From Acidobacteriaceae bacterium (GTDB lineage Bacteria; Acidobacteriota; Terriglobia; Terriglobales; Acidobacteriaceae), in NCBI GenBank assembly GCA_965276705.1, contig OZ255621.1:3808110-3872109 (forward strand): 64,000 nucleotides of DNA, read 5' to 3'. The position numbers and the translations under genes were made by a program. The notes beneath the pieces are model-generated. The model was given only the letters and a program-made list of their open reading frames with translations. It was not told where the DNA came from and ran no database searches. Positions 21,055 to 57,681 of the stretch are shown in pieces (the stretch's first letter is position 1; every line of letters starts with the position of its first letter).

Positions 21055-21072
21055 TTTCGCGGGATAGTCCGC

Positions 21073-23494: not shown

Positions 23495-23504
23495 AATCCT
23501 TAGT

Positions 23505-24230: not shown

Positions 24231-24281
24231 ACTGAACCACCGCGGTGCAATCTCCGCGATCCTTCCTTTGACCCTGTCCAA

Positions 24282-28066: not shown

Positions 28067-28082
28067 AGAAAGGCCTCCTATG

Positions 28083-28114
28083 TAGCCATGATGCACTTAT
28101 AGCCATGATGCACT
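28083..28114. repeat. Perfect 15-nt direct repeat (17-bp period) in the leader of the JmjC-like gene
   Basis: TAGCCATGATGCACT at 28083-28097 and again at 28100-28114, immediately upstream (minus-strand sense) of the GGAGG RBS. Confidence 0.8.
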
Positions 28115-29909: not shown

Positions 29910-29930
29910 CGGGCCACGCTCCTCGGGATG

Positions 29931-32563: not shown

Positions 32564-37639
<5,076 letters not shown>

Positions 37640-37891: not shown

Positions 37892-38719
37892 TTACGTTAC
37901 GTTTATTCTGCTTTCGGTCGAGGCTTGTGGGGACGCCAGGGACGGCGCCCAATCGAAGAGCGCGAGCGTGGGCTGCGGCTTGTGATGCCTCCACGCTACC
38001 GCGCCGGGCGCATCCGGCAAAACCTGCAGCGGGGCGATCTCCCATCCCTCCGGTACGCCTTGCAGGCGTTGTGCCGGTTCCCCAGCATCGAGCGGAACGG
38101 CAAAGCTGTCCAGCGCGCGAAACAGACCAGTACCTTCGGCCTTCAGCAGTGCTTCCTTGCGGGTCCAGCATCGATAAAAAGCAGTCGCGCGTTCTGCCGG
38201 TGAGAGCTTCGACAGAGCTGCGCGTTCTGCCGCCGCGAAGTTCTGCTCCGCTACATCGTCGAGGTCGTTTGTTATATGGGCGCGCTCCACGTCCACGCCG
38301 ATGTCAAACTCCAGAGCGAAGGCAAAGATAGCAAGATCGCGGGTGTGCGAAAGGTTGAAGCAGATCCGGCTGTCGGCCAGGAAGGGCTTACCGTGCGGGC
38401 CTATCGAAACCTCAATCTCTCCTGCATTTGCTACGGAGGCATAGTGCGCCAGCAACAGGCGCAGGGTGGCGCGCGTGGCAATCGATTGCCGCTGATCCTC
38501 AGGAAATAAGAATCGGCGGGAGCGTTCGATCTCCTCCGGACGCAGGTAGGGCAGATAAGCCTCGCTTGCAAGGCGAGCCTTGGGCCGAAGCCGCCATACA
38601 TGGATCGTATTGTCAGGAAGCAGTGGAAGCGCCGGAGTCGATTGCCAAAGAGTGGGTCCGGCTTGCGCCGCAGTCGTCACGTCAGAGCGTGCCTGCATGC
38701 AACAGCCGTCCATCGACAC
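37892..38719 (-). CDS. 4'-phosphopantetheinyl transferase, Sfp/EntD type
   Basis: FNLSHTRDLAIFAF, FDIGVDVERAH and WTRKEALLKAEG (PPTase motifs). Candidate starts at 38719, 38713 and 38698 all overlap the end of the upstream NRPS gene. Confidence 0.85.
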   Translation of the reverse strand: MSMDGCCMQARSDVTTAAQAGPTLWQSTPALPLLPDNTIHVWRLRPKARLASEAYLPYLRPEEIERSRRFLFPEDQRQSIATRATLRLLLAHYASVANAGEIEVSIGPHGKPFLADSRICFNLSHTRDLAIFAFALEFDIGVDVERAHITNDLDDVAEQNFAAAERAALSKLSPAERATAFYRCWTRKEALLKAEGTGLFRALDSFAVPLDAGEPAQRLQGVPEGWEIAPLQVLPDAPGAVAWRHHKPQPTLALFDWAPSLASPQASTESRINVT

Positions 38720-41700
38720 GATGGGCCAAGGGAGGCGTTGACTCCGCAGGCGCGCCGTTCAACTCCCCACTCAGCAAGCAGCGCCGCACCAGTTCGGTGG
38801 TCGCCTCCAGCTTCTCACCGAGGAACATCGTCTCGTGATCGCCGGGCGCCCACAACACATCAACACCATGCATCGCGACCTGTTCCCAGCCGCAGGCAGC
38901 GCTGGCGCCCGGCACTTCGCGCGTATCGTGAGCGCGGATCAGCGTGAGCCGGATCGGCACCGGTCGCGCGCGATACGCGTGCAGGGCGGCGAAGGTATTC
39001 AGCGTGGTGTTGTACATGAACTGCGGCAGTGGCATGTGGAAGCGGTTGGCTAGTACGTTGATCGCACTCCAGTGCCGGATGAAAAAGCGGTTCCGCTTGC
39101 TCAACAGGAAGCGCCCGGCCGCGCCGCGCATGTACTGCATGCGTTGCCCGACGGAGAGGGAACTCATCTTTTCATTGTGCCGGCGCAGCTTGCTGCGGAT
39201 GCCATTGAACTTCGGCGCGAATGAGCCGTTGGCCTTCACGCTCTCGACACCGGTCAGGTATCCGGGCAGCCAGGAGTCGAAGAGAATGACCGACGCCATG
39301 GTCTCGCCAGCCTCGATCAGGTGGCGCGCCACCTCCACGGTGAGCGGGCCGGCTGCGCACCAGCCCATAACCGAGTAGGGTCCATGCGGCTGTACAGCGC
39401 GTATCTCGCGCACATAGTTGGCCACACGCTCGGGCATGCCGAGTTCGTTGTCCGCTTCCAGCTCGCGCAGCCCATAGAAGGGTTGGGTGCGGCCAAGGGC
39501 CTGTGACAGCCCCTGGTAGAGAAGGTAGGAGTGGATCATGAAGACCGGCGGCAGATGCCCGTGGGTCTGCACCGGCACCATAGCGCGAATCTCGTCCTGC
39601 AGCCGCAGTCTCGCGGAGAGCTTCGCGACGGTGTCCGCGTCGAAGATGGTTGTAATGGGGAGCCGTGTCCCGAAGGCCTTATTCACACGTGCGAACAGGC
39701 GTACCAGCAGCAGTGAGTTGCCGCCGGCACTGAAGAACGATGCATGCGGATCGATGGTCGAGAGATTCAGTGTCTCCCTCCAGATATCGCTCAACTCCCG
39801 CGATACATCATCTGTGGCAAGAGCACTGTCCTCAGCTATCGCCAGCGCGCTTTCTGCTGCGGGTTCGGGCGCAGGGCGCAGCGCCGTTATGTCGATGGAG
39901 CCATCCAGTCGATAGGGCAGCGCATGTGCTATCTGGAGAGTCGATGGCACAAGATGCTGCGGCAACGTCGCGGCCAGGCTCTGCCGTAGCTCAAGTGCGT
40001 CCAGCTCTCCATGACCCATCACCCAGGCGGCAATCTGCGATATCCCATCTTCGCGCTGCTGCAGAATGGAGACTGCGTCGATTACGCCCGGCATGCGCAG
40101 GAGCGCTGCATCGAGATCGCTCAGCTGTATGCGATGTCCGCGCAGATGCACGACAGAGCTGATGGTGCCGAGGACGCGGAATCCGTGAGCGGTATTCCCT
40201 TGCGTCTGCACCAGGTAGCCGGTCCGTTCCCGGCTGGTTGCGTGGCGATGGACCAGGGTCAATTCACCGGTCGCGCCGGCGGGGACGTGCTGGCCTTCTG
40301 CATCCAGCACGGATGGCGCGACGTCGGGCAACACGACGAAGTCCGCACTGCGCGTGACGGCGGTGGCCAGTGCGTTGCCGTGGACAGAGAGGAGGCTCAC
40401 GGCGGAGCGAACCGCGGTCGTGTCGTTCAACCAGCCGGTGTGCTCGACGTGCCGCCCGCGCGCGATAGCTGTCAGGCGGCGATCGCCCTTCCAGCCATCG
40501 GCAACCCATCCACGCCACTGGGCCGGTTCCGCGATGACGACCGACGATTGGTGAGCATCGAGGATCGGCTGGAGTGCCACGCCGGACTGGTAGGTGGTGA
40601 GGTCGAGGGTGACTCCGCTGTGCAGCGCGAGCAGATGGTCGAAGAGGGCATCCGCAGGTGATGCAGGCGCGACGGAGAGCAGGCCGTCCTCCGGAGCAAG
40701 ATGGAGCCGCTCCGCGAGTGCGGAGACCGAGTGCATCGTGTCCGCGAAGGAGATGTCCTCTGTAGAAAAGGTAGACGTCCCGAATGAAGCCGTGCTCGGC
40801 ATTGCCCAATGTCGCGGCATGGTGCGCGAGCCGTCTGCAGCGGTAGCAGCATCGACGCCGGGCAGCGTGGCAATGCCCTCGAAGGCCAGAGACCGTGTCC
40901 GCGACGACGCAGTGTCGTGAAGGAACCGTGCCGGGGCCAGCAGAAGTGTGGAGTCAGAAGCAGCGAGCTGGAGGTCGGCCCCGCTGGTGTGCGCAGGCAG
41001 CGGAACGATGTGCGGCCCGTTCTCGCCAAGCTGAAGCAGTGCAAGCAGCGCGACTGCCGATGCGACTTCTGGTGTCAGCACGACGAGTGCGGTCGTGGCA
41101 CCGGCCAGATGGGCCTCGTGTTCCAGATAAGCAGACAGGGCTTGCGCCCGTTCGGCAAGCTGCTGCCAGGTCAACGCCTGCGAGCCTGCACGCACGGCTA
41201 TACCCGCCGGCTGTGCGAGGACATGCGCTGTAACGGTGTCGAGAAGGTTGTCCGTCGCGGTCTGCCGGGTGTCGTCGACCGACGCGATCGTCTCAACCAA
41301 TGAGGAAGGAGCAGAACCGACTTCGATCTGGGAGATGGGCTGCTCGGGATGCGCGAGCGCGCCGGTGAGCATCTGTTGGAAGGCAGCAAGCAGGCCTTCG
41401 ATACGTGCACCGGTAAACAGGTCGGTGTTGTATTCGATCTGCAGGCGCGGGCCCTCGGCGCGCTCGACGACACTCACCAACAGATCGAAGTCGACCCCAC
41501 CCGAGACCGAGCGCAGTGGTGTCAGTGTTAGGCCGGGTATTTCTTGTGGCTGCATGAACGCGCGCTGGTAGACAAACCAAACCTGCAAGAACTGCGAGCC
41601 TGCCCCCTCCTGATGCGTCTGAAAGGCCTCCATGACGCGGGAGAAGGGCATGTCCTGATGCGTGTACGCGGAGGTCTCCCACTCCCGCACGCGCAGCTCC

Positions 41701-42815
41701 AAATCGCGGAAGCTGGGATCGCCGGTGACATCGGCGACGACGATCTGCGGGTTGGCAAAGCGTCCCACAACGTCTTCCATGCCGGGCTGCGTCCGATTCG
41801 CGATGGTCGACCCGAGCAGGAACTGTCGCTGCCCGCTGAATCGCGCACACAGAGCCTCGAAGATCGTCAGCAGGACGATATGCTTTGTCGATCCGCTGGT
41901 GCGGCAATAGGCAGCGAGCTTTTGATTCACACTGGGCGGCAGTAGAGCCGAAGCGATGGTGCCGGGAAAGCTGCGTCCGGCCTGTCGCGGATAATCTGCC
42001 GGCATATCCAACGCGGGCAGCTCCCGGGGAATGTGGCTGGTCCAGAAATCGAGTGCAGTGGCAGCCCGCTCGCTGGCCAAGTACTCATTCTGCCAAACGG
42101 TAAAGTCGGCGAACTGGAAGGGCAGCTCGGGCAGGTTGCCAGCCGGCCCAGCGGCAACCTCTTTCAGAGAGCCAGCCCCGGTACGCAGCGCGTGGTAGAT
42201 ACGCGCTAAATCGCGCATCATCAGTCCGTTTGACCAGCCGTCGCAGACGATGTGGTTCATGGTCAGCGCTAGGACATATCGCTCCGGGGCCAACGCGAAG
42301 AGGCGCGCCCGCAGGACTGGACCGTGCTCCAGGTCGATGGCCAGGTGGCTGTGCTTGGACAGAGCAGCTGCGAGGGCAGTCGGTTGACTGGCGGGGCTCA
42401 CGGAGCTCAGGTCCTGCTGGGTGAACTCATAGAGCGGCCGGGTCAGGATGACCTGCGAGAGCTGCCCGTCCACCACGCGGAAGAGCGTACGCAGCGCCTC
42501 GTGCCGGATAGTCAGAGCAGCAAGCGCCTGCTCGACGATCAGCGGATCCAGTGCACCGGCAATCTCACAGGAGATCGCCATGTTCGAGGCGGTCGAGCCG
42601 GGGTCGATCTGCGCCAGGGTCCAGTAGCGGGTCTGCTCCAGGCTTGCCGGGACGACGAAGGTCTCTTCCGCCCCTTCGGCATCGGGAGTGCCGTCGGAGG
42701 GCGTTGACACTGGATGTCCTGTCTCCGGGTAGCCGTCACCCACACGTATCTCGTCGGGCGCGACAGCGTCTGCGTTCGTGTGTTCTAAAGACTCGAGATG
42801 GGGGGCGCGTGTCAT
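38682..42815 (-). CDS. NRPS termination module: C - degenerate A - T - TE (Cys nucleophile)
   Basis: 1377 aa. C motif MNHIVCDGWS, carrier motif FFSAGGNSLLLV, TE motifs VFMIHS, VMGWCAAG, ILFDSW, WAPGDHETMF. The A-domain core motifs are eroded (see findings). Confidence 0.9.
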   Translation of the reverse strand: MTRAPHLESLEHTNADAVAPDEIRVGDGYPETGHPVSTPSDGTPDAEGAEETFVVPASLEQTRYWTLAQIDPGSTASNMAISCEIAGALDPLIVEQALAALTIRHEALRTLFRVVDGQLSQVILTRPLYEFTQQDLSSVSPASQPTALAAALSKHSHLAIDLEHGPVLRARLFALAPERYVLALTMNHIVCDGWSNGLMMRDLARIYHALRTGAGSLKEVAAGPAGNLPELPFQFADFTVWQNEYLASERAATALDFWTSHIPRELPALDMPADYPRQAGRSFPGTIASALLPPSVNQKLAAYCRTSGSTKHIVLLTIFEALCARFSGQRQFLLGSTIANRTQPGMEDVVGRFANPQIVVADVTGDPSFRDLELRVREWETSAYTHQDMPFSRVMEAFQTHQEGAGSQFLQVWFVYQRAFMQPQEIPGLTLTPLRSVSGGVDFDLLVSVVERAEGPRLQIEYNTDLFTGARIEGLLAAFQQMLTGALAHPEQPISQIEVGSAPSSLVETIASVDDTRQTATDNLLDTVTAHVLAQPAGIAVRAGSQALTWQQLAERAQALSAYLEHEAHLAGATTALVVLTPEVASAVALLALLQLGENGPHIVPLPAHTSGADLQLAASDSTLLLAPARFLHDTASSRTRSLAFEGIATLPGVDAATAADGSRTMPRHWAMPSTASFGTSTFSTEDISFADTMHSVSALAERLHLAPEDGLLSVAPASPADALFDHLLALHSGVTLDLTTYQSGVALQPILDAHQSSVVIAEPAQWRGWVADGWKGDRRLTAIARGRHVEHTGWLNDTTAVRSAVSLLSVHGNALATAVTRSADFVVLPDVAPSVLDAEGQHVPAGATGELTLVHRHATSRERTGYLVQTQGNTAHGFRVLGTISSVVHLRGHRIQLSDLDAALLRMPGVIDAVSILQQREDGISQIAAWVMGHGELDALELRQSLAATLPQHLVPSTLQIAHALPYRLDGSIDITALRPAPEPAAESALAIAEDSALATDDVSRELSDIWRETLNLSTIDPHASFFSAGGNSLLLVRLFARVNKAFGTRLPITTIFDADTVAKLSARLRLQDEIRAMVPVQTHGHLPPVFMIHSYLLYQGLSQALGRTQPFYGLRELEADNELGMPERVANYVREIRAVQPHGPYSVMGWCAAGPLTVEVARHLIEAGETMASVILFDSWLPGYLTGVESVKANGSFAPKFNGIRSKLRRHNEKMSSLSVGQRMQYMRGAAGRFLLSKRNRFFIRHWSAINVLANRFHMPLPQFMYNTTLNTFAALHAYRARPVPIRLTLIRAHDTREVPGASAACGWEQVAMHGVDVLWAPGDHETMFLGEKLEATTELVRRCLLSGELNGAPAESTPPLAHRVDGRLLHAGTL
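38796..39563 (-). other. Type I thioesterase domain with Cys in the nucleophile elbow (approximate borders)
   Basis: GWCAAG, with the Cys codon at 39357-39359 (aa 1153). Asp in ILFDSW and His in GDHETM. Confidence 0.8.
39600..39818 (-). other. Peptidyl carrier (T) domain (approximate borders)
   Basis: GGNSL with the Ser codon at 39714-39716 (aa 1034). Confidence 0.85.
39861..41288 (-). other. Degenerate adenylation-like domain (approximate borders)
   Basis: ANL-fold-length region between C and T. A3 reads PSTASFGTSTFS instead of TSGSTGxPKG. A8 reads GTISSVVHLRGHRIQLSDLD. A10 reads LDGSID instead of NGKxD. Confidence 0.7.
41346..42653 (-). other. Condensation (C) domain of the termination module (approximate borders)
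   Basis: NHIVCDGWS, with the catalytic His codon at 42252-42254 (aa 188). The first His of HHxxxDG is Asn. Confidence 0.75.
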
Positions 42816-42855
42816 CCTCGGGCATTTACTTTCAGTCGTCTGCAGCGCCCTAGCC

Positions 42856-45800
42856 CTAGATCGTTTGCACCTTGCGAAACCGGTCCCGGGCTATTGCCTT
42901 AATAGTATGCGTCGGTGGTGCCCCCTTGTCAGGGCTTTCTTTCTCCAGATTTTCGATTTCGGTAACCAGTACGGAGATACTTTTGCTCTGGAAGAGCTGC
43001 TTTGCCGTCACCGGGATGCCGGCCTGCGTGGCCTGCGTGGTGATGCGGAAGATGGAAAGAGAGTCGCCGCCCAGTTCGAAGATACTGTCGTCGATCGAGA
43101 TCGCAGGTACATTGAGCACGCGGGTGAAGATGCCGACCAGCTGCTCCTCGAGCGGTGTGCGGGGCTGGGTGATGGCGCGTTCCCCAGAGCTGCGTTCAGT
43201 CTGCGGGGCGGGCAATGCGCGGTAGTCCACCTTGCCGTTCGCGGTGCGCGGGAAGGAAGGCAGCAGCAGGATGGCCTGGGGCTGCATATGCTCGGGAAGC
43301 TGCGTGCGCAGGTAGGCGCGTAGTTCGCGGGTGAGTTGAGTGGGCTCCATTCCGTTGCGCGGGATTGCGTAAAGCGCCAGCCGCTTGTCGCCGGGAACAT
43401 CCTCGGTGCTGTTCCAGTCGGCGCGGGCGTAAGCCACGGCGGCGCGGACCTCAGGGAACTGCTCGGCGGCATATTCGATCTCACCGAGTTCCACGCGATA
43501 GCCGCGGATCTTGATCTGCGCGTCACGCCGGCCTAGAAACTCAATGGTGCCGTCTGCGGTGTAGCGGGCCAGGTCTCCAGTGAGATACACGCGCTCGGTG
43601 ATGGGTTGGGACCCATGGGTCAGGGTCACATCGATGAACTTGGCAGCGGTGGTCTCGGGTGCATGCAGATACCCGATTGCAAGCCCGTCACCGGCGGCGC
43701 AGAGCTCCCCGGCGACGCCGATGGGAACCGGCCGCTGTGAGGCGTCAAGCAGGTAGACTCGCGTGTTCGCGATCGGACGGCCGATTGGGACGCTGCCGCG
43801 CTCGAGATCGTTCTGTTGAATCGTGTGGCAGCAGGTGAAGGTGGTGTTCTCCGTAGGCCCATAGCCGTTGACCAGGCGAAGACCCGGTGCTGCTTCGAGC
43901 AGAGTGCGGACATGTGCTACAGAGAGCACATCGCCACCGGCGAGGAGCTGCCGCAGCGGTTTGAGCGCGTCTAGGTGGTCCATCACCATCAAATGGAAGA
44001 GCGCCGCGGTGAGCCATACGGTGGTGATGCCGTGCTGCCGGATGGTTGCGCCGATCTCCTCCGGGGCCGGCTTCGCGCCGGGCATTAGCACCAGGCGGCC
44101 GCCATTCAGCAGTGCGCCCCAGATCTCGAAGGTGGAAGCGTCGAACGAGATTGGCGCAAGCTGCAGGATGACCTCATCGGGACCGAAGCGTGCGTAGTCT
44201 GTGTTGAGGACCAACCGGGTCACAGCACGCTGCGGCACTACCACACCCTTTGGTTTTCCCGTCGAACCGGAGGTGTAGATCATGTAGGCGGGAGCCGTTG
44301 CGGGGATTCTTGCCTGAGCGGAGGAGCTGGCCGAATCCAGCGACAGGTCCTCAAAGGCGACCGTCTTCACCGAGAAAGACGCAAACCGTTGCGCCAGCCG
44401 CCGTTGCGTAAGAAGGAGTTGCGGCCGGGCGTCATCCAGCAGCAAGGCAAGCCGTGCCTGCGGGTATTCCGGGTCGATCGGCACATACATGCCGCCAGCC
44501 TTCAATGTGCCCAGGATTGCAACGATCAGTTCCGGCGCACGCTCCATGCTGATGGCGACGCGCAGGCCATTTTCGGTGGCGACATGGCTGCTGTACTCCG
44601 TGGTGAGCCATGCAGCGAAGGCGTCCGAGCGGGTGTCGAGTTCGCGGTAGGTGAGCGAAGTTCCTTCAGCCACCAGCGCGGCAGCGTCGGGTGTGCGTAC
44701 AACCTGATCGCGAAATACCTGGGCGATGGAACTGTCGCGCGGGTAATCCCGCTCGGTCCGGTTCCAGGTGACGAGCATCTGCTCTAGATCGGCATCGGAG
44801 AGCAAACGCAATGCGCCGATCGGCCTGTCAGGGTTCGCGGCGGCATCGGTTGCCAATAGCTCCAGCGCGCCCACCCAGCGAGCAATGGTCTCGCGGTCGA
44901 AGAGGCTGGTGCTGTAGTCGCAGTCGAGCAGCAGGTCGTTGCCGCGATCGACGAAATTGAAGAACAGATCGGCGGAGGCGGCGGTTTTTGCGTTTGGGTC
45001 GAGCTGCGTCCTCAATCCGTCGAAGGACAATCGCGAGCCAACTTGCTCAAGGTTGAACTGAACCTCGGCCAGCGGCAGTCGAGAGGGGTCGCGGGCCATC
45101 TTCAACTGTTGGATGAGAGAAAACAGCGTATATTGCTGATGGTCAAGAGCATCGTATACGGAGCTTTGCACGTCGCCGGTCAGAGCAAGGAAGGGCTTGG
45201 TTGCATCGGCATGAATGCGCAGAGGCAGGAAGTTAACTGCATGACCGATAAAGCTCTTACCGGCAACTTCACGCTGGCCTGCCATGGGGACGCCGACGAC
45301 CAGGTCGTCCTGCCCGGTGAGGCGGCTGAGTAGTGTCGCATAGGTGCTCAGCAAGGTGACGAAAAGCGTTGTGCCGTTTGCCTGCGCACTGCTGCGCAAC
45401 CGGGCAAGCAGGTCGCCGGAAAAGAGGTGACGATAGGTGGCGCCGTCATGGGAGCGCAGTGCAGGGCGCGGCCGATCTGTCGGCAACTGCAGCGGCTCAG
45501 GCAGGGTGGTGTACTGCGATTGCCAGAACTCCGCGACGGCAGCGCCGTCGGCGGTGGAGCGGGCGTCGTGCTCCCCGCGTGCCTGCGTGAGCAGGGAGTG
45601 CGCGGGAAGCAGCTTGGCTGTGGTGCCGTTGCGGGCGGAAGAATAAAGCGCGCCCAGCTCCTCGAAGAGCACATTGATCGACCAGCCGTCGAGCACGATA
45701 TGGTGCGCGGTCAGAATCAGGTCGTGCCGTTCCGGCGACAGCTTGAGCAGGATGACGCGGACGAGCGGTCCTTGACCCTTAGGGCCGCCAAATAGATCGA

Positions 45801-48800
45801 ACGGTGTCGAGGCCTCGTCTTCGAGCAGCGCGATGCGGCGGACATGCTGCTCCTCGACGGAGAGCGCACTCCAGTCCTCTTCGCGAACGGGCAGGGTTGC
45901 GTCGGGCGAGATGTGGATGCGTTCGCCGTCGCGCGTGATCGTGAGCCGCAACGCCTCATGACGCGCCACCAGCGTATCGAGCGAGCGGAGCAGCGCATCG
46001 CGCTCGAGCGCGCCGTCCAAGTGCAGAGTGACCGATTCATTGAAGGCGCAGCTAGCCGCGGCATCGAGCTGCGAGGCCAGCAGAACCTCACGCTGCGGCT
46101 CGGTGATGGGTGCTTCTGCATCCGTGACGGGAGCGACAGCGCTCTCCGCGTGCGCGGCAACGGGCTGCTGCGTTCCGGTTGCAGGAAGGGCCTGACCGGT
46201 GCGCATGGCTTCAAGCGCGGTGCGGAAGCTGGCACGCACCGTCGCCAGATCGGCATCGGTGTGCGCCGTGGTGAGGAAGCAGGGAAAGCCCTCCTGCAGA
46301 TGGACCCCTTGCTCGCGCAGGTGGTAATAGATGAGCCGCGCCAGGCGCGATTCCATCGGCGAGGGGAAGAAGAACCACGACGCGAAGTTCTCGACGGGTG
46401 AAGGGAAGCCGTATTCCGCAAAGAGGCCGCGCAGATCGTCGGCGAGCGCGCTTGCTTTGTCGTTCAGTGCTGATTGGAGCGCCGGGCCTGCATCCTTCAG
46501 GTGCGTCAGCGCAGCTCGTACCGCGGCCATGGTCAGCGGATGACGCACGAAGGTGCCGGCAAAGAAGGTGACGCCGACCTGCGGGATGGAGTCGTCCCCG
46601 AAGCGCCAGCTGCCGCCGTCGAGCGCGTCCATATATGTGCGGCTGCCCGCCACAACGCCCACCGGCATTCCGCCGGCGACGACTTTGCCGTAGGTAGCCA
46701 TGTCGGCGCGGATGCCGAAGAGCGCCTGTGCGCCCCCGGGATGGGTGCGGAATCCCGTGACAACCTCATCGAAGACCAGCGCAGCGCCGGCATCTTCGGT
46801 GATAGTGCGCAGCTCGCGCAGGAATTCAACCGGGCGTAGCGCCGGATGGCGGCTCTGTACCGGTTCGACCAGTACGGCGGCGATCTCATCCTTGCGACGG
46901 CGGATGACCTCGAGTGCGGCGGGTGAGCCGTATTCAAGCACCAGCATGTTGTGCACGCTTTCGCGCGGGATGCCGGGCGCGGCCGGGATGGAGCGCTCGG
47001 CGCGCGTCGACTTCACCAGCACCTCGTCGATCATGCCGTGGTACGCGCCGGAGAAGAGCACGACCAGATCGCGGCCGGTCACGGTGCGAGCCAGCCGCAT
47101 CGCCGCCATTACCGCCTCGGAGCCGGTATTGCAGAACGACACGCGCTCCATGCCGGTCATGCCTGCGAGCAGTGCCGCACACTCCCCGGCTAGGTCGGTC
47201 TGCGGGCCGATGGGAAAGCCGAGTTCCAGTTGCGCCCGAACTGCGTCGGTTACGAATTTAGGGGAGTGGCCGAAGAGGATCGATCCGTAGCCGTTCAGAA
47301 TGTCGATGTAACGGTTGCCGTCCTTATCCCACAGGTAAGCGCCCTGGGCGCGCTCGACCACCAGCGGATAGACCATCTCCTTCCACTCGGGATGAAAGCC
47401 GGAGGCGACGCGCGGATCGGCGAGCACGTCACGATAGTCTTCGACGTGCTGCTTTGAGCCGGCGGTGCGCCGGTTATAACGCGCGATCAGTCCCGCGAGA
47501 TGTTCCTTCTGTACTCGATTGAGCGGGGCTTCCTGCCGCAGTTCGAGCGGCTTCAGCGGCACCATGGTGCCGAGTGTCGGCTCCGGAGCGGCACTTGCGG
47601 AGCCTGCCGGTGCGGTGTGGTGGGCCACGCTGGGAAGCGACTTGGCCAGGCTGACCGCGCCGGCGCGAGACGAGGGCGCTGTGGTGGGGACGGCTGCAAC
47701 GGACGTTGCAATGTGCACGGCAGGTTGTGCCGCACCACCTGCAGCCAGCACGGCAAGCTGCTGCTGCATAAGGTCGGCCATGGCCTGCATCTGCTGTGCG
47801 AAGAGGGCGGCGTAGTTGCCGGTTGCAACACTGCCCGCTGTAGCCGGCGCAGAGGTCGGGAGTGCCGGCATGTTCGGCGCCGCCGCGACCACTGGGGCAC
47901 CCGCCGGCGTAGGCGCGGGATGGGCGTGCGGACGCAGATGATCGGCCAGCGCGGCGAAGTTGCCGAACTCGCCCATGATCTGGCGGAAGGTGAGCTTGAC
48001 TCCGTAGCGGGCACGAATGGACTGCGTGAGCTGGGTCAGAAACAGCGAATCCAGACCAAGCTCGACAAAGGAGGTGGCGGCCGGGACACCGGAAAGATCC
48101 AGATCCGAGAGGTCGGCCACCATCGCCTTCAACTCGTCCAGAACAGAGTCGACAGCAGGAATGGCGTCATTGGCATGAGTTCCAGGGGAGATCAATGGCA
48201 TGTCGTTTCCTTGGCGTCCGGTCATAGCCGGGAGTGCCGCGTCCGAGTGTGTCGCCTGCTCTGTCGCGGTCTGCGGTCGATTGGCCGGTGCGCCGACGGG
48301 CGCGGGGGCATCGACCCAAAAACGCTTGCGTTGAAAGGGATAGGTAGGCAGCAGGATACGCCGGGGCTGCCTGCCTTCCCAAAAGTTGGTCCAAAGCGGC
48401 TCCAACCCCAGTGTGCTGAGCTTTGCCAGGGTAGGCAAGATGCCTGCCGTACTGAATGGGGTGACCGAAAGGGGAGCCGAAGACGACTCGACTGCATCGG
48501 GCGCACGCGCCGGATCGAGGCTTGTCAACACGCGCCCTGCATCGAGCGTGCCGGCCAATGTCTGGCGGATCGCTCCCTGTAGGTTGGGGACAGGGCTGAT
48601 TTCGAGAAAGATCGCATCGCCCGCCAGCGTAGCGTGGGCGACGCGGATTGTCTCGGCAAAGCGGACCGGCTCACGCGCCTGGCGTGGCCAGTCCCAATCG
48701 GCAAGCGTCTCTTCGGTAACAGAAGCGCCGGTGAAGCTGGAGACCCAGGGCAGCTGCGGCGCGACCGGTAGGAGCGTGGGCAATGCGGCGCGCAGCCCAT

Positions 48801-51075
48801 CGGCCACCGGATCCATGGCGCGACTATGGAAGCCGTGGGAGGTAACGAGACGCTTGGCGGCGATGCCTTGTGCGGTCAATGCTGCGGCGAAAACGTCAAT
48901 CTCATCGGACGGCCCGGAGACGGTGACCGCCTGCGGCGCGTTGATCGCAGCCAGATCGAGCGTCGCAGGTAGCAAGGCGCGGACGCGATCCTCGGTCGCG
49001 CGCACGGCAAGCATGGCGCCGGTGGGTTGTCCCTGCATGAGCCGGCCCCGCGCCGCGATCAAGGCCAGCGCATCTTCAAGTGAGAGCGAGCCCGCGATGG
49101 TGGCGGCGACGAACTCGCCGATGCTGTGGCCAAGTACCATGGAAGGCCGGATGCCCCAGGACTCCCAGAGCCGGGCAAGCGCATAGCAGACAGCAAAGAT
49201 GGCGGGCTGGGCGAGGCGGGTCTGATCGAGCCGGGTCTGGTGCGCCGCAGGGTCGCCGCCGGATGGATAGAGTGCAGCGGTGAGGGACTCGCCGAGCAGC
49301 GGCATCAGAATGCGGTTGCAGGCATCGAGTTCGCGACGGAAGACCGGCTCGCTCCGGTAGAGATCCCCGCCCATGTCGACGCGCTGGATTCCCTGGCCCG
49401 GGAAGACGAAGATCAAGCGCGGCGTCGAGAGCGCGGGTGTCGGGGTTGGCCGTTTCGACCGCAGCGCCGCGGCGGCGGCCAGAGGGTCGCCGGCGACGAC
49501 CGCATCGCGGAACGGCAGCCGAGCACGGCCCTCCGCCAACGTGAAAGCAATATCCGCCAAGTCTATTTCGGGATGCGTTTCGAGAAATGTCGCCAGACTC
49601 TGATGGATTTGGTCAAGCGCGTCTGGAGTGCGTGCCGATATAAGCAAAACTTGTCCAAAATTGTGAGGCTCGGACGCTTTATTCTTGTTTAGTTTACTCG
49701 TGTATTCCTCAACGATGATATGAGCGTTTGTGCCGCCGACGCCAAAGGCGCTGACTCCGGCACGCAAGGGCACGCCGGCGCTCGTTTCCCAGGCCATGGG
49801 CTCGGCTGAGAATCGATAGTCCACAGGACTGTCCGTGAGTTGACGAACGATCTCCGGATTGAGCGCCTCGAAGTGGGCGAGGCCGGGGATCTGCCGATGT
49901 CCGATCTGCAGCACCGTCTTGATGAGGCCAATAACCCCGCTCGCCACATCGAGATGCCCCAGATGCCCTTTGGCCGTGCCGACTGTGACGGCAGGGCGGG
50001 TGGACCGCGCTTCCTGCGCGAGGCGGGTTCGATAGGCGAGGTCAAGCCCGGCCATCTCAATGGGATCGCCGAGCGGCGTGCCAGTACCGTGTGCCTCGAT
50101 GTAGGTGACGGTCTCCGCCGCGACGCCGGCCATCTCCTGTGCCGCGACGATGACGTCGGCTTGGCCTGCAACGCTGGGCGCGGTGTAGGCGCCCTTGGCT
50201 GAGCCATCGTTATTGGTCGCGAAGCCGCGAATGACGGCGAGAACGGGGTCGCCGTCCGCCTCGGCATCTTCCAACCGTCGCAGAACGACCACACCCGCGC
50301 CTGCGCCGAAGACCGTTCCCTGGGCGCGATGGTCAAAGGGTCGGACGACGCCATCGACCGAGACGATACCGCCCTCCTCCGGCAGATAGCCGCGGTGCTG
50401 CGGGAAGGTGATCGAGATACCGCCGGCCAAGGCCATATCGCAGCCGTAGGTGAGCAGGCTTTGGCAGGCCTGCGCCACCGCAACCAGAGACGTGGAGCAG
50501 GCACTCTGCACGGTTACGCTCGGACCGCGCAGGTCCAGCTTCCAACTCACACGCGTGGGCAGAAAGTCCTTATCGTTGCCCATCATGGTGACGTAGGAGC
50601 CGGACTGATAGTCGGCGGTGAAGCGCTCCAGAAAGGCGCGATCGTGCGCGAGGTTATGCAACAGGTAGGTATTGAGAGCCGAACCGGCAAAGACACCGAT
50701 GGACTGCGTGCTGCGCCGAGGGTCGTGGCCCGCGCGTTCGAGCGCCTCCCAGCAAATTTCGAGGAAGAGACGGTGCTGCGGGTCCATCTGCTCGGCTTCC
50801 TTAGGGTAGATCCCAAAGAAGGCTGCATCGAACTGGTCCACGTCCTCTAACACCGAGCGGGCCGGCACATATCCGGGTTGGGCTGCGGTGGCGGCCGAAA
50901 CTTCCAGATCTTCCGGCGCGATCCGACGAACCGCCTGTTTACCGGCGATGAGATTGGCCCATAAGGCTTCTGGGGTTATGGCGCCAGGGAAGCGTCCAGC
51001 CATGGCAGTGATGGCGATGGCCGGTCCAGTGGCGGCGTGGGTATCTACCGCGGAGAGGGTAGGGTGCTCGTTCAC
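42856..51075 (-). CDS. Hybrid PKS-NRPS: KS-AT-ACP-aminotransferase-C-A-T
   Basis: 2739-aa single ORF. The GTG start overlaps the carrier-gene stop (GTGA at 51072-51075). Motifs are listed under the individual domains below. No KR, DH, ER or MT regions recognised. Confidence 0.95.
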   Translation of the reverse strand: MNEHPTLSAVDTHAATGPAIAITAMAGRFPGAITPEALWANLIAGKQAVRRIAPEDLEVSAATAAQPGYVPARSVLEDVDQFDAAFFGIYPKEAEQMDPQHRLFLEICWEALERAGHDPRRSTQSIGVFAGSALNTYLLHNLAHDRAFLERFTADYQSGSYVTMMGNDKDFLPTRVSWKLDLRGPSVTVQSACSTSLVAVAQACQSLLTYGCDMALAGGISITFPQHRGYLPEEGGIVSVDGVVRPFDHRAQGTVFGAGAGVVVLRRLEDAEADGDPVLAVIRGFATNNDGSAKGAYTAPSVAGQADVIVAAQEMAGVAAETVTYIEAHGTGTPLGDPIEMAGLDLAYRTRLAQEARSTRPAVTVGTAKGHLGHLDVASGVIGLIKTVLQIGHRQIPGLAHFEALNPEIVRQLTDSPVDYRFSAEPMAWETSAGVPLRAGVSAFGVGGTNAHIIVEEYTSKLNKNKASEPHNFGQVLLISARTPDALDQIHQSLATFLETHPEIDLADIAFTLAEGRARLPFRDAVVAGDPLAAAAALRSKRPTPTPALSTPRLIFVFPGQGIQRVDMGGDLYRSEPVFRRELDACNRILMPLLGESLTAALYPSGGDPAAHQTRLDQTRLAQPAIFAVCYALARLWESWGIRPSMVLGHSIGEFVAATIAGSLSLEDALALIAARGRLMQGQPTGAMLAVRATEDRVRALLPATLDLAAINAPQAVTVSGPSDEIDVFAAALTAQGIAAKRLVTSHGFHSRAMDPVADGLRAALPTLLPVAPQLPWVSSFTGASVTEETLADWDWPRQAREPVRFAETIRVAHATLAGDAIFLEISPVPNLQGAIRQTLAGTLDAGRVLTSLDPARAPDAVESSSAPLSVTPFSTAGILPTLAKLSTLGLEPLWTNFWEGRQPRRILLPTYPFQRKRFWVDAPAPVGAPANRPQTATEQATHSDAALPAMTGRQGNDMPLISPGTHANDAIPAVDSVLDELKAMVADLSDLDLSGVPAATSFVELGLDSLFLTQLTQSIRARYGVKLTFRQIMGEFGNFAALADHLRPHAHPAPTPAGAPVVAAAPNMPALPTSAPATAGSVATGNYAALFAQQMQAMADLMQQQLAVLAAGGAAQPAVHIATSVAAVPTTAPSSRAGAVSLAKSLPSVAHHTAPAGSASAAPEPTLGTMVPLKPLELRQEAPLNRVQKEHLAGLIARYNRRTAGSKQHVEDYRDVLADPRVASGFHPEWKEMVYPLVVERAQGAYLWDKDGNRYIDILNGYGSILFGHSPKFVTDAVRAQLELGFPIGPQTDLAGECAALLAGMTGMERVSFCNTGSEAVMAAMRLARTVTGRDLVVLFSGAYHGMIDEVLVKSTRAERSIPAAPGIPRESVHNMLVLEYGSPAALEVIRRRKDEIAAVLVEPVQSRHPALRPVEFLRELRTITEDAGAALVFDEVVTGFRTHPGGAQALFGIRADMATYGKVVAGGMPVGVVAGSRTYMDALDGGSWRFGDDSIPQVGVTFFAGTFVRHPLTMAAVRAALTHLKDAGPALQSALNDKASALADDLRGLFAEYGFPSPVENFASWFFFPSPMESRLARLIYYHLREQGVHLQEGFPCFLTTAHTDADLATVRASFRTALEAMRTGQALPATGTQQPVAAHAESAVAPVTDAEAPITEPQREVLLASQLDAAASCAFNESVTLHLDGALERDALLRSLDTLVARHEALRLTITRDGERIHISPDATLPVREEDWSALSVEEQHVRRIALLEDEASTPFDLFGGPKGQGPLVRVILLKLSPERHDLILTAHHIVLDGWSINVLFEELGALYSSARNGTTAKLLPAHSLLTQARGEHDARSTADGAAVAEFWQSQYTTLPEPLQLPTDRPRPALRSHDGATYRHLFSGDLLARLRSSAQANGTTLFVTLLSTYATLLSRLTGQDDLVVGVPMAGQREVAGKSFIGHAVNFLPLRIHADATKPFLALTGDVQSSVYDALDHQQYTLFSLIQQLKMARDPSRLPLAEVQFNLEQVGSRLSFDGLRTQLDPNAKTAASADLFFNFVDRGNDLLLDCDYSTSLFDRETIARWVGALELLATDAAANPDRPIGALRLLSDADLEQMLVTWNRTERDYPRDSSIAQVFRDQVVRTPDAAALVAEGTSLTYRELDTRSDAFAAWLTTEYSSHVATENGLRVAISMERAPELIVAILGTLKAGGMYVPIDPEYPQARLALLLDDARPQLLLTQRRLAQRFASFSVKTVAFEDLSLDSASSSAQARIPATAPAYMIYTSGSTGKPKGVVVPQRAVTRLVLNTDYARFGPDEVILQLAPISFDASTFEIWGALLNGGRLVLMPGAKPAPEEIGATIRQHGITTVWLTAALFHLMVMDHLDALKPLRQLLAGGDVLSVAHVRTLLEAAPGLRLVNGYGPTENTTFTCCHTIQQNDLERGSVPIGRPIANTRVYLLDASQRPVPIGVAGELCAAGDGLAIGYLHAPETTAAKFIDVTLTHGSQPITERVYLTGDLARYTADGTIEFLGRRDAQIKIRGYRVELGEIEYAAEQFPEVRAAVAYARADWNSTEDVPGDKRLALYAIPRNGMEPTQLTRELRAYLRTQLPEHMQPQAILLLPSFPRTANGKVDYRALPAPQTERSSGERAITQPRTPLEEQLVGIFTRVLNVPAISIDDSIFELGGDSLSIFRITTQATQAGIPVTAKQLFQSKSISVLVTEIENLEKESPDKGAPPTHTIKAIARDRFRKVQTI
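42940..43158 (-). other. Peptidyl carrier (T) domain (approximate borders)
   Basis: FELGGDSLSIFRI (Ser2672, codon 43060-43062). Confidence 0.85.
43261..44778 (-). other. Adenylation domain with all core motifs intact (approximate borders)
   Basis: LKAGGMYVPIDP, AYMIYTSGSTGKPKGV (about 44246-44278), FDAS (Asp codon 44140-44142), NGYGPTENT, GELCAAGDGLAIGY, YLTGDL, GRRDAQIKIRGYRVELGEIE, PRTANGKVDYRAL. Confidence 0.9.
44821..46113 (-). other. Condensation domain (approximate borders)
   Basis: LTAHHIVLDGWS (HHxxxDG at aa 1791-1797, nt 45685-45705). Confidence 0.85.
46201..47523 (-). other. Class III PLP-dependent aminotransferase domain, GSA-aminomutase-like (approximate borders)
   Basis: YLWDKDGNRYIDILNGYGSILFGHSP, FCNTGSEAVMAAMRLAR, LVFDEVVTGFR, MATYGKVVAGGMPVG (PLP Lys1464, codon 46684-46686). 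Confidence 0.85.
47932..48153 (-). other. ACP domain (approximate borders)
   Basis: FVELGLDSLFLTQL (Ser1010, codon 48046-48048). Confidence 0.85.
48526..49419 (-). other. Acyltransferase domain, malonyl-type motifs (approximate borders)
   Basis: FVFPGQGIQ, GHSIGEFVAA (Ser651, codon 49123-49125), and TSHGFHSRAM (HAFH-like rather than YASH). Confidence 0.85.
49711..51024 (-). other. Ketosynthase domain (approximate borders)
   Basis: DPQHRLFLEICWEALE. Active site VQSACSTSLVAV (Cys193, codon 50497-50499). EAHGTGTPLGD, KGHLGHLDVASG, GGTNAHIIVEE. Confidence 0.9.
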
Positions 51076-51461
51076 TGGTCCTCCTCCATGTTGGCGGGAG
51101 ACGCAGGACGCAGCCGTGCAAAGGCGGCGCGTTGGCGAGCGCCGCGGTCGATAGCGCTGCGGTTGGGAGCAGAAAGCGCCGGCTGATCGCGATATGTTTC
51201 GAATGGGGCAACCGCTGCACGCGGAACCGTCGGCGCCTGCGCGTAGCGGGTCAACAGGCGTGCGGTAGGAGCGGCAAAGATGGCGGAGGCGGGTATGTCG
51301 AGCACGCCGGCCGTTCGCAGTCGCGTGGCAAGCCGCGCCGCCAGCAGGGAACTACCGCCCGCCTCAAAGAAGTTCTGCTCCGGGCCGAGTTCCGGTGCCC
51401 CCAGAATCTGGCGGAAGACGGCCAGTACTTGGACCTCGCGCTCGATCTGCTGCACTGCCAT
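51072..51461 (-). CDS. Free-standing carrier protein (PCP/ACP-like) with a roughly 55-aa C-terminal extension
   Basis: 129 aa. NFFEAGGSSLLAARLATRL phosphopantetheine-site motif. AGGAG RBS 8 nt upstream of the ATG at 51461. Its stop overlaps the PKS start. Confidence 0.8.
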   Translation of the reverse strand: MAVQQIEREVQVLAVFRQILGAPELGPEQNFFEAGGSSLLAARLATRLRTAGVLDIPASAIFAAPTARLLTRYAQAPTVPRAAVAPFETYRDQPALSAPNRSAIDRGARQRAAFARLRPASPANMEEDQ

Positions 51462-56272: not shown

Positions 56273-57634
56273 CTAGCTCCACACTCGGCGGAACGCGAAT
56301 CGGACGGGCGATGCGTAGACAGCAGCCCGCTCGGGCACAGCGGCCAGGGCCTTCGTCGGACGCAGCTCCTGGGACCAGCCGATGATGAGAAAGAAGAGCG
56401 TGTAGGTCTGAAAGCCCAGGTAGACCGTCGTGATGCTGAGGGTGATGGTGACGAACGCGGCCAGCAGACAAAGCGCAAACGAGGTCTCGGAGCGATCTCG
56501 GGAGCGCATCGCAGTGCGGACCAGACGATATCCCGTGGCCAGGATCAGCAGCGTGAAGAGAGCGAGGCCGAGATATCCGTCGCGCAGTGCGACGTTCAGA
56601 TATTCATTGTCGATCGAGCCCTGACCGTCGACGTGGGGAAAGTTCAGCCCGTAACCAAAGACTCCACCGCGTTCGACGACCGGGGTGTAATTGACGATCA
56701 AGTAGCGTCGATACTGTGCGTTCTCCTGATCCTGGTCCGATGCGGCGTGATTGATGCTGGTGTAGTTGTTGAGCACCGAATAAGAGACAGCCATCAACAG
56801 CGCGCTCGCGATCACTACGTTGCGGAAGGCGCGCTTCTGGTTCTTGGCCCGCGCTGCCAGCACCAGCAGAATGCCGAAGGCGCCCCCCAGCCAGGGACCA
56901 CGGGACTGCGTCATCCAGACACCGAGCGCAAGTCCGAGGATGATGTAGACAGACTTACGGCCGGGAAGGAAGTTGAGTCGGCTGAACTTGCTGCCCCACA
57001 TCTGTTCGTTGCCCAGCCAGATGGCGAACAAGAGCGCGCAGAACAACACGCAATCGGCCAGAATGGCGTTGCCGTAAGGACCGGCGATACGGGCATAGCC
57101 CCAACGGAGCTGCATGCCGAGATGGCTCTGGTTATGGAAGATCCGGTCCGACCAGATGCGGAAATAATTTTGCGCCATCCGGTACTCGTATAAGGAGAGA
57201 AGAGAGATCACGAAGGCCAGGAAGGCGAAGCGCTTCACTATAGCAACGCGCAGGCCAGGCCGCTCCACGGCAACCCGGCCAATGATGTAAGCAGGAAAGA
57301 CGCCGATGGCGGTGGCTGTGCCCAGGGCTAGTCCCGCCGACTGGCCGTCGGCATTCCAGTTCGAGAGAAGGACGCTAAAGCAGAAAAAGGCGACCAGCAG
57401 ATCCACCAGCGTGTATCGCCAGTGCCGCGCGTACTTGAGGACAAGACTGCCCGCGATGACGGTGGCGACCATATCCATGATGTCAAGCTCGACGCCCTTG
57501 AACCTCCAGCCGGTGCCGTAGGGCCAGAGCATCATCAGCGGGATATAGACATTCAGGACCGCACGCTCCGGACCGCCCTTCCAGATGGCAACCAGAGCGA
57601 CAGCGATACCCGAGATGAGCAGAAGTGCAAGCAT
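56273..57634 (-). CDS. O-antigen ligase/polymerase-like (Wzy_C) integral membrane protein
   Basis: More than 10 hydrophobic segments. Characteristic loop GVWMTQSRGPWLGGAFGILLVLAA. The ATG at 57634 (MLALLLISGIAVALV) is preferred over the track start at 57814. Confidence 0.75.
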   Translation of the reverse strand: MLALLLISGIAVALVAIWKGGPERAVLNVYIPLMMLWPYGTGWRFKGVELDIMDMVATVIAGSLVLKYARHWRYTLVDLLVAFFCFSVLLSNWNADGQSAGLALGTATAIGVFPAYIIGRVAVERPGLRVAIVKRFAFLAFVISLLSLYEYRMAQNYFRIWSDRIFHNQSHLGMQLRWGYARIAGPYGNAILADCVLFCALLFAIWLGNEQMWGSKFSRLNFLPGRKSVYIILGLALGVWMTQSRGPWLGGAFGILLVLAARAKNQKRAFRNVVIASALLMAVSYSVLNNYTSINHAASDQDQENAQYRRYLIVNYTPVVERGGVFGYGLNFPHVDGQGSIDNEYLNVALRDGYLGLALFTLLILATGYRLVRTAMRSRDRSETSFALCLLAAFVTITLSITTVYLGFQTYTLFFLIIGWSQELRPTKALAAVPERAAVYASPVRFAFRRVWS

Positions 57635-57681
57635 GTTCTTTGATTTCAACCTACTCGTACCTTGCCAGTCTAGGGCGAAGA

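Follow-up and report, generated by a model that had tools for sequence, protein, structure and literature searches.

A candidate amino-acid-primed NRPS-PKS-NRPS assembly line beside exopolysaccharide genes in Acidobacteriaceae

A stretch of 64,000 nucleotides from an Acidobacteriaceae bacterium (contig OZ255621.1 of assembly GCA_965276705.1; "the window" below means this whole stretch, in whose numbering all positions are given) carries a four-gene hybrid of a polyketide synthase (PKS) and nonribosomal peptide synthetases (NRPSs), with one competent adenylation (A) domain and a carrier that has no cognate loading enzyme in the window. How does such a line start its product, and what is the product made for? 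A preliminary description of the locus had seen an orphan line, in which an acyl starter is extended once and turned into a very small lipopeptide. Our analysis tips instead towards a slimmed-down line that belongs to a widespread and uncharacterised family of NRPS-PKS-NRPS systems, that is started by an amino acid, and whose peptide is probably made together with, and for, an exopolysaccharide (EPS) or matrix programme.

Gene content and family of the assembly line

The genes and domains of the line, assigned with Pfam, are as follows.
51072..51461, minus strand: T0, a stand-alone carrier (thiolation, T) protein of the peptidyl type, 129 amino acids (PP-binding), with Ser38 in GGSSL and a basic C-terminal tail
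42856..51075, minus strand: megasynthase, 2739 amino acids
49867-51021, minus strand: ketosynthase (KS) of the megasynthase
48550-49413, minus strand: acyltransferase (AT) of the megasynthase
47935-48138, minus strand: acyl carrier protein (ACP) domain of the megasynthase (PP-binding)
46384-47370, minus strand: aminotransferase (AMT) of the megasynthase (Aminotran_3)
44773-46116, minus strand: condensation domain C1 of the megasynthase (Condensation)
43231-44715, minus strand: A domain of the megasynthase, with the Val code DAFWLGGTFK (AMP-binding)
42955-43149, minus strand: carrier domain T1 of the megasynthase (PP-binding)
38682..42815, minus strand: terminal synthetase, 1377 amino acids
41319-42653, minus strand: condensation domain C2 of the terminal synthetase, with NHIVCDG, His188 (N187-H188) (Condensation)
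39846-41255, minus strand: A*, a relic of an A domain in the terminal synthetase (weak N-terminal AMP-binding fragment)
39606-39797, minus strand: carrier domain T2 of the terminal synthetase, with Ser1034 (PP-binding)
38766-39560, minus strand: thioesterase (TE) of the terminal synthetase, with Cys1153, Asp1180 and His1327 (Thioesterase)
37892..38719, minus strand: Sfp/HetI-type 4'-phosphopantetheinyl transferase (PPTase), 275 amino acids, last gene of the block (ACPS, AASDHPPT_N)

The list of open reading frames (ORFs) contains all four genes as the preliminary description had placed them, in one direction, and the tight packing that it reported can be read in the sequence. The genes for T0 and the megasynthase share a GTGA start/stop overlap at 51072-51075, with AGGAGG as a ribosome-binding site 5 nt upstream; 40 nt separate the megasynthase from the terminal synthetase (42856 to 42815); and the longest PPTase ORF overlaps the terminal synthetase gene by 38 nt, the true PPTase start being possibly an internal Met. 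A hairpin (AGGCTTTTT..AAAAGCCT) lies 3' of the PPTase stop codon. In NCBIfam the PPTase matches HetI (4e-39, under the model cut-off), and a PPTase was found in 26 related loci.

The domain order KS-AT-ACP-AMT-C-A-T / C-A*-T-TE / PPTase was also described correctly, as was the AT in cis; no ketoreductase, dehydratase or enoylreductase was found by Pfam in the four-gene line. Pfam E-values for the seven domains of the megasynthase (KS, AT, PP-binding, Aminotran_3, Condensation, AMP-binding, PP-binding) range from 1e-22 to 1e-83, and each catalytic residue named before was found when motifs were read directly: Cys193 in SACSTS, HGTGT at 329 and His374 of the KS; Ser651 in GHSIGE of the AT, whose HGFH is of the malonyl type; Ser1010 of the ACP; the pyridoxal phosphate Lys1464 of the AMT; HHIVLDG at 1791 of C1; K2276 (A3) and K2615 (A10) among the A cores; and Ser2672 of T1. 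Every one of them is invariant in a 16-sequence family alignment in which identity falls to 48%, and since they are, the gene set reads as intact and not as debris. Neither frameshifts nor stops occur across the 13.5 kb of the four ORFs.

The line is, however, no orphan. About 100 full-length homologous protein clusters of the megasynthase (2,700-2,870 amino acids, identical Pfam set) have 50-81% identity to it, and the named ones all come from Acidobacteriaceae (Acidicapsa ligni, Silvibacterium acidisoli, S. dinghuense and Paracidobacterium acidisoli); homologues of the terminal synthetase give the same picture. A scan of one genome per species found at least 595 stretches that encode relatives of the megasynthase. 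From it we kept 80 relative loci with 34-55% identity (numbered with the prefix L below), and hosts among the matches listed include Acidobacteriota, Verrucomicrobiota, Rhizobium, Bosea, Novosphingobium, Caballeronia, Steroidobacteraceae, Nostoc and others, the cyanobacterial relatives being about 43% identical to the megasynthase. Six loci in which the megasynthase is at least 50% identical, S. acidisoli and a metagenome-assembled genome of Alloacidobacterium among them, are called orthologous loci here. None of the relatives carries a functional name. Literature searches turned up no characterised example of such a cluster, only generic surveys and catalogue-type mentions, in agreement with the preliminary description, which did not recognise the gene set as a characterised cluster. 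Neighbourhoods were surveyed by unbiased clustering of flanking ORFs in 85 loci plus the window (86 in total). By domain content, a complete line of this family reads A-T / KS-AT-ACP-AMT-C-A-T / C-(variable)-T-TE(Cys). Cluster 0 of the all-versus-all comparison was considered as a family of stand-alone ligases and discarded, since it turned out to contain both loading A-T proteins and A-T pieces split off from megasynthases.

Starter unit, adenylation domain and terminal module

What primes the line is best seen from its relatives, where an adenylating unit stands directly before the KS, either as a separate protein of 580-690 amino acids or fused to the megasynthase. This unit is a genuine NRPS A-T didomain, with the P-loop TSGSTGxPKG, Asp235 in FDAxTFEIW, GK(V/I)D at A10, AMP-binding_C and PP-binding. 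Specificity codes were extracted at the Stachelhaus positions with GrsA as the reference; as a control, GrsA itself gave back its code, DAWTIAAIC. The code of the loading A domain is DAFWLGGTF in most relatives and DFWNIGMVH, which we take to be a Thr code, in some. In most relatives the internal A domain has DILQLGMIW or DILALGMIW instead. The only intact A domain of the window sits at the internal position, yet has the loader-type code DAFWLGGTFK, which in all ten positions equals the Val code tabulated for MlcM of malacidin; DILQLGMIWK is a Gly code. This exact match to a literature code was used for the assignment in place of relatives in the PDB, of which the best, LgrA, has a non-canonical code and was uninformative.

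T0 would fit this picture as what is left of such a loader. Its best NCBIfam matches are T domains of NRPSs (for example MxcG), it aligns over up to about 120 residues, basic tail included, to the C-terminal T domain of the relatives' A-T loaders, its GG(S/T)S serine motif is invariant in seven orthologues, and in four loci (L001, L007, L013 and L031) it runs straight into the KS as one protein. On these grounds T0 reads as the surviving T domain of an ancestral A-T loading didomain, and its basic tail is probably a docking element. Priming by an amino acid is the likely logic of the line. An acyl starter, and with it the lipopeptide of the preliminary description, was looked for as a FAAL (fatty-acyl-AMP ligase) and dropped: no gene for any AMP ligase was found by Pfam among the roughly 50 ORFs of the window, which upholds what had been noted about the missing FAAL; no FAAL lies within 10 kb of the line in any of seven clade loci; and the AMP-binding unit of the relatives is an amino-acid A domain with a Val, sometimes a Thr, code.

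With no A domain of its own, T0 would have to be charged from elsewhere, and the four-gene line has only one competent A domain, as described before. In BLAST searches with this domain, its own clade comes first (54-67% identity); next are the relatives' loading A domains, at 41-51% and 330-490 bits, and these outrank their Gly-type internal A domains. In three relatives (L035, L049 and L054) the loading and the internal A domain are both of the Val type, plausibly an intermediate at which the loader has become redundant and free to disappear. Four others (L017, L018, L025 and L056) keep an intact A domain in the second synthetase, of the Val type, and where that domain is dead or deleted the loader is usually of the Val type. 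To judge from gene content and codes, it is rather likely that one A domain serves T0, T1 and T2.

In the terminal synthetase, the motifs of C2, T2 and the TE are invariant in the alignment of seven orthologues: C2 keeps xHxxxDG, T2 keeps Ser1034, and the TE keeps its triad in GWC1153AAGP, LFD1180SW and GDH1327E. The nucleophile of the TE is a Cys (GWCAAG) and not a Ser, a point that goes beyond the preliminary description. Its best PDB match, over the full length, is AB3403 (4ZXH, E 1e-13). We also considered a lactone- or lactam-forming TE of the ObiF/SulM type, since a Cys is present, but the position of the Asp and the flanking motif match AB3403.

The A* region lies between C2 and T2. Its Pfam AMP-binding match (24 bits) is under the cut-off, and only its C-terminal subdomain aligns to real A domains. 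It is without the A3 P-loop and the A7 Asp, its A10 Lys is replaced by Ser, Thr or His in all seven orthologues, and its identity between orthologues is 27-34%, against 51-64% for C2. Across phyla 5 of 470 aligned columns are conserved, and in Rhizobium, Bosea and Caballeronia the region is deleted, which leaves C-T-TE. In six loci (L004, L006, L016, L026, L030 and L071) a second condensation-like domain stands in its place (C-C-T-TE), and because of this replacement the middle domain of the terminal synthetase appears to be interchangeable across the family. We thus rejected A* as a neofunctionalised domain, given how few columns are conserved and that other lineages have replaced it or done without it, and read it as a relic or spacer. 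A Cys nucleophile occurs in 40 of the 56 loci in which a TE was found, 36 of these 40 being proteins without intact A motifs. The terminal module, which had been called unusual, is in this respect the majority state (36 of 56), and the constant part of the module in the family, by domain content, is C-T-TE(Cys).

A variant of C2 was seen in Rhizobium freirei (L067 19929-22409) and two further relatives (L009 and L034), which have C-T-TE with the condensation motif HQxxxDG (catalytic His to Gln) and keep the Cys-TE; C2 in these Rhizobium-type relatives may be non-canonical or inactive.

The polysaccharide block and its surroundings

The boundaries first drawn for the system (37892-51461) leave out a polysaccharide operon directly upstream and a co-conserved cupin gene at 27164-28096. 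The upstream genes are listed here.
57682..58938, minus strand: glycosyltransferase of the WecG/TagA family with a C-terminal STAS domain, first gene of the block (Glyco_tran_WecG 1e-61, STAS 7e-12)
56273..57814, minus strand: Wzy_C membrane protein, O-antigen ligase/polymerase-like (Pfam 9e-12), present in L002 and L013
54973..56478, minus strand: family-2 glycosyltransferase (GT2; Glyco_tranf_2_3 5e-24), in 6/6 orthologous loci at 45-59% identity
53834..55075, minus strand: Wza-type outer-membrane polysaccharide exporter (OPX; Poly_export, SLBB), in 6/6 orthologous loci
51575..53803, minus strand: Wzc/EpsF-EpsG-like co-polymerase, 742 amino acids, with weak NCBIfam matches to the eps_fam tyrosine autokinase, EpsF, EpsG and pepcterm_TyrKin

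Together with the assembly line, which forms the 3' half, these genes make up an operon-like block of nine genes in one direction, with gaps of at most 113 nt, the gap of 113 nt being the one between the co-polymerase and T0; from this spacing we infer that the block is co-transcribed. The order WecG-STAS, GT2, Wza, co-polymerase, T0, megasynthase, terminal synthetase, PPTase is kept in all seven loci (the window and the six orthologous ones) at 51-61% protein identity. The co-polymerase, which has no Pfam match, is 40-61% identical and syntenic in 6/6 orthologous loci, and always stands directly upstream of the carrier or the megasynthase. The gene for WecG-STAS (EpsA/wecG_tagA in NCBIfam) is likewise found in 6/6 orthologous loci, at the same position in L001 and L002, and the best NCBIfam match of the Wza protein is an XrtA/PEP-CTERM exopolysaccharide export protein (2e-30, under the cut-off). 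Because the line makes up half of such a block, we consider that its peptide is probably made along with, and for, the exopolysaccharide or matrix programme, and a functional coupling of the two seems fairly probable from the gene order.

The association is seen beyond the clade. Wza, Wzc-like, Bac_transf or WecG families lie near the line in 28 of the 86 loci, in Acidobacteriota, Verrucomicrobiota (Haloferula, Luteolibacter), Alphaproteobacteria (Bosea, Rhodobacteraceae) and Gammaproteobacteria (Nevskia, Steroidobacteraceae). Such neighbours would be expected in a few per cent of random loci, a figure that is a rough estimate and not a computed control. Judged as a Wzx/Wzy-type locus, the window has the OPX protein, the polysaccharide co-polymerase, a Wzy-type protein, three GT2, a family-4 glycosyltransferase (GT4) and WecG, and beside the related lines in L083 and L084 there are a Wzx flippase and an initiating transferase. 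By Pfam, the block contains no transporter dedicated to small molecules.

Several features of these genes deserve mention in their own right. The fusion of WecG to STAS is conserved in the clade (also L001 3857-5170 and L002 1993-3327), and the STAS domain, which resembles anti-sigma-factor antagonists, suggests post-translational regulation of glycan synthesis. The Walker A motif of the co-polymerase reads ASESGTTT, with no Lys, and the protein is without a C-terminal tyrosine cluster; it may be a kinase-dead polysaccharide co-polymerase. Upstream of WecG lies a CxxCxxCC protein (59963-60787, minus strand), a putative chelator of Zn or Fe, which is conserved in L002 (128-787) and L003. The Steroidobacteraceae-type loci L083 and L084 are flanked by genes for a sigma-54 response regulator, a FemAB-like Acetyltransf_6 protein, MBOAT, Acyl_transf_3-SGNH, PMT_2, a PAF-AH-like hydrolase and a Wzx flippase, a set that resembles EPS loci of the PEP-CTERM/exosortase type. 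No homologue of the relatives' PAF-AH-like hydrolase, "c9" family, DegT, Bac_transf or sigma-54 activator was found in the window by tblastn; the window has a PAF-AH-like ORF at 62964-63974, which shows no homology to that family of the relatives and is not claimed as part of the system.

On the other side of the line, five more genes bear on its role.
27164..28096, minus strand: JmjC/Cupin_8-type Fe(II)/2-oxoglutarate oxygenase, with His166-x-Asp168...His239 and Lys181
28252-29289, plus strand: GT2 (Pfam)
29256-29909, minus strand: hexapeptide acyltransferase (Pfam)
29931-30932, minus strand: GT2 (Pfam)
30929-32254, minus strand: GT4 (Pfam)

The cupin gene is some 10 kb downstream of the line, beyond the glycosyltransferase genes, and its family (Cupin_8/JmjC) accompanies the assembly line in 18 of the 86 loci, in several phyla; the window protein is 48% identical to an Eremiobacterota member (tblastn, E 2e-85). 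In 15 sequences the HxD...H triad is invariant and the Lys conserved, and the best PDB matches of a profile are FIH and JMJD5, which are peptidyl C3-hydroxylases, and Bacillus YxbC. The GT4 and GT2 genes are syntenic in L002 and have homologues beside the related lines in L019, L026, L030 and L062. The glycan genes at 28252..32254 probably belong to the same functional island as the line, and the position of the cupin, with the glycosyltransferase genes between it and the synthetases, suggests that one such island spans about 27.1 to 58.9 kb.

Within this region, between the PPTase and the GT4/GT2 genes, a convergent gene (32507-37639, plus strand) encodes a surface protein of 1710 amino acids with Ig-like repeats (Big_3_5). 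It occupies the same position in L002 (23069-26164), and at its C-terminus a basic stretch precedes a hydrophobic segment, with no PEP-CTERM motif. Possible tailoring genes lie beyond the cupin at 20401-27047 (methyltransferase, radical SAM, GH130, short-chain dehydrogenase/reductase, ATP-grasp, flavin N-hydroxylase-like monooxygenase). Further away, at 6058-8600 (minus strand), a CHASE2 protein adjoins a caspase-like Peptidase_C14, a pair that resembles signalling or conflict systems and is apparently unrelated to the line.

Predicted product, rival readings and known systems

The following pathway can be proposed. The single Val-specific A domain of the megasynthase would charge its own T1 and, in trans, the orphaned carrier T0 and probably also the A-less T2. 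The KS would condense Val-S-T0 with malonyl-ACP, the ACP being loaded by the cis AT, and the AMT would turn the 4-amino-3-oxo intermediate into a 3,4-diamino-5-methylhexanoyl thioester. C1 would then join the diamino acyl chain to Val on T1, C2 would join the product to Val on T2, and the Cys-Asp-His TE would off-load a small, polar, cationic pseudo-tripeptide, which the co-conserved JmjC oxygenase may hydroxylate. We infer the collinear product to be 3,4-diamino-5-methylhexanoyl-Val-Val (C17H34N4O4, 358.258 Da). The core chemistry given in the preliminary description (one malonate extension, transamination on the line, an amide bond) is the standard reading of these domains and is kept here; its acyl starter is not.

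Among known systems, McyE and NdaF have, like the megasynthase, KS, cis AT, ACP, an embedded class-III aminotransferase (beta-keto to beta-amino) and then an NRPS module in one polypeptide; the exact domain order of McyE was reportedly set out by Tillett et al. in 2000. McyE, however, works on a long polyketide handed on by McyG and McyD, to which it adds D-Glu, whereas the window has neither an upstream PKS feed nor a Glu A domain: its KS is fed by a carrier of the peptidyl type, its A domain is of the Val type, and its line ends after one more, A-less module. MycA, ItuA and BamA share the logic from KS to AMT to C-A-T, with an embedded class-III aminotransferase and a beta-amino acyl-aminoacyl intermediate, and had been taken as the model of the line; the order is indeed shared, but McyE, with the same order and a cis AT, is the closer model. 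MycA has an N-terminal FAAL, is served by a malonyl transferase in trans, and continues into multimodular NRPSs that make a cyclic lipoheptapeptide, whereas the window has no FAAL in 64 kb, an AT in cis and one further A-less module, C-A*-T-TE. Unlike the line proposed here, neither McyE nor MycA/ItuA starts from an amino acid.

Sharing of one A domain among several carriers has a precedent in yersiniabactin synthesis (Gehring, Suo, Walsh and colleagues), where a single A domain of HMWP2/HMWP1 aminoacylates three carriers, including one on another protein, in an A-less module. That line activates Cys, has cyclisation domains and makes a siderophore, while for the window the sharing is read from gene content and specificity codes. 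In the Dlt system teichoic acids, glycopolymers of the cell surface, gain positive charge from an aminoacyl group, which comes from an adenylating enzyme and a carrier protein. The window has no MBOAT or DltB-like gene; one is present in the relative L084.

For the terminal module the nearest system is AB3403 (A1S_0115) of Acinetobacter baumannii (PDB 4ZXH/4ZXI), a terminal C-A-T-TE protein with a Cys nucleophile (GGWCFGG, GWCAAG in the window), whose Asp (MIDT) aligns at the sequence level with that of LFDSW in the window, at position I, after beta-6. The SulM structure paper names AB3403 as the sole further NRPS TE of solved structure whose nucleophile is a Cys, and places its Asp at the ordinary position. 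The AB3403 operon is needed for biofilm, pellicle and surface motility, and its detected product is possibly a glutathione adduct of an electrophilic precursor. AB3403 differs in having a working, Gly-activating A domain (a competent A domain is absent from this module in all seven orthologues here), and its partners are an acyl-CoA synthetase, an ACP and an acyl-CoA dehydrogenase instead of a PKS-NRPS. ObiF and SulM also have a Cys nucleophile in an NRPS TE, and the cupin could supply the beta-hydroxy residue for such chemistry; their triad Asp, however, is at position II and SulM has Gln-Cys-Asn, as opposed to Trp-Cys-Ala and position I in the window, a comparison made at the sequence level only. 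Finally, in Collimonas, carenaemin requires both a PKS-NRPS cluster with an AMT and a separate sugar-repeat-unit locus for one product; the cluster is much larger, its line is unrelated, and the link to the sugar locus is genetic only.

Other ways of starting the line have to be weighed against priming with Val. An iturin/MycA-like initiation, in which an acyl starter undergoes one extension and a transamination and is then linked to a single amino acid to give a tiny beta-amino-acyl lipopeptide, would agree with the KS-(AT)-ACP-AMT-C-A-T order, which fits MycA and McyE alike, and with a T0 that has no cognate loader in the window, an acyl ligase elsewhere being formally possible. We regard it as improbable, as every homologous loader examined is an amino-acid A-T didomain and not a FAAL, T0 is of the peptidyl type and homologous to the T domains of these loaders, the seven clade loci are free of FAAL within 10 kb, and the second T domain and conserved C2 imply a further residue. 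Much the same low probability attaches to T0 being primed with malonyl or acetyl by the AT (or being vestigial), with an acetate start leading to 3-aminobutyryl-Val-(Val). The AT is in cis and malonyl-type, no loader gene is found in the window, and the KS keeps its Cys, so that other priming is possible in principle; yet T0 carries the GGxS motif and descends from an aminoacyl carrier, it is under constraint and fused to the KS in four orthologues, and the remaining A domain has the specificity and ancestry of the loader, which explains how the loader could be lost. That loss, the dead A* and the lack of a promoter-like site might also be taken as signs of a decaying or silent cluster on its way out. 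This we consider very improbable, given that the 13.5 kb are free of frameshifts and stops, that all other catalytic residues are invariant, that the same reduced architecture is kept in about 100 protein clusters and that in other phyla, too, the middle domain is as a rule dead or deleted.

The closest competitor accepts the amino-acid-primed assembly logic and denies its connection to the polysaccharide: the product would be a free, diffusible metabolite (a signal, chelator or inhibitor), and the neighbourhood inherited synteny without function. Products of NRPS-PKS lines are normally free molecules, the AB3403 system gives a small soluble compound, and in 58 of the 86 loci no gene of the Wza, Wzc, Bac_transf or WecG families lies within about 10 kb; because about two thirds of the loci are of this kind, the line can work without polysaccharide neighbours. 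Against it stand the synteny in 7/7 loci at just 51-61% protein identity with operon-like spacing, the recurrence of the polysaccharide association in four phyla or classes, the position of the cupin beyond the glycosyltransferase genes, and the absence of a dedicated transporter from the block. A free metabolite therefore seems to us possible, but less probable than a peptide coupled to the polysaccharide programme. That preferred reading has, besides the 58 loci, further points against it. Synteny within one family could partly reflect vertical inheritance. Neither a Wzx flippase nor an initiating phosphoglycosyl transferase (Polysacc_synt, Bac_transf, WecA) is among the window ORFs scanned; a search for sigma-54 promoters gave 32 matches where 35 +/- 6 were expected, none of them in the relevant intergenic regions; and a scan for sigma-70 promoters and terminators did not exceed what shuffled sequence gives. 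The case for trans-loading of T0 and T2 is argued solely from the lack of alternatives within 64 kb, a stand-alone A domain or acyl ligase elsewhere in the genome being possible; the HQxxxDG motif of the Rhizobium-type relatives may mean that the role of C2 is not simple condensation everywhere; and the product structure presupposes strict collinearity.

Should the peptide be coupled to the polysaccharide, it might also be attached to it. Covalent attachment to the glycan is a tentative idea, to which we give a minority chance. A specific form of it is doubtful to at least the same degree: the Cys-TE would transfer the diamino pseudo-tripeptide onto the nascent exopolysaccharide or a lipid-linked precursor, directly or as a beta-lactone after beta-hydroxylation by the JmjC oxygenase, to give a peptide-decorated, positively charged matrix polymer. 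If glycan transfer were true, the system would be a nonribosomal analogue of the D-alanylation of teichoic acids, conserved in several soil phyla; if the link to the polysaccharide is coincidental, a new but modest family of small peptides remains.

For the chemistry of assembly lines, the family joins three uncommon features: a KS-AMT module that starts from an amino acid, so that a vicinal 3,4-diamino acid is predicted; modules whose A domains are lost or deleted, one A domain apparently feeding up to three carriers; and a Cys-TE of the AB3403 type. The loci also record a stepwise reduction, from an A-T loader, through Val-type A domains at both positions, to loss of the loader, and so offer a natural experiment in the streamlining of an assembly line. 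Acidobacteriaceae are abundant in soil and produce copious EPS, and almost no secondary metabolites have been characterised from them. A nonribosomal line fixed in an EPS export operon of these bacteria is a candidate source of a peptide-modified or peptide-accompanied matrix polymer. The value of the family would thus lie in its amino-acid-primed KS-AMT chemistry, its streamlining to a single A domain, and its recurrent, locally invariant embedding in exopolysaccharide loci.

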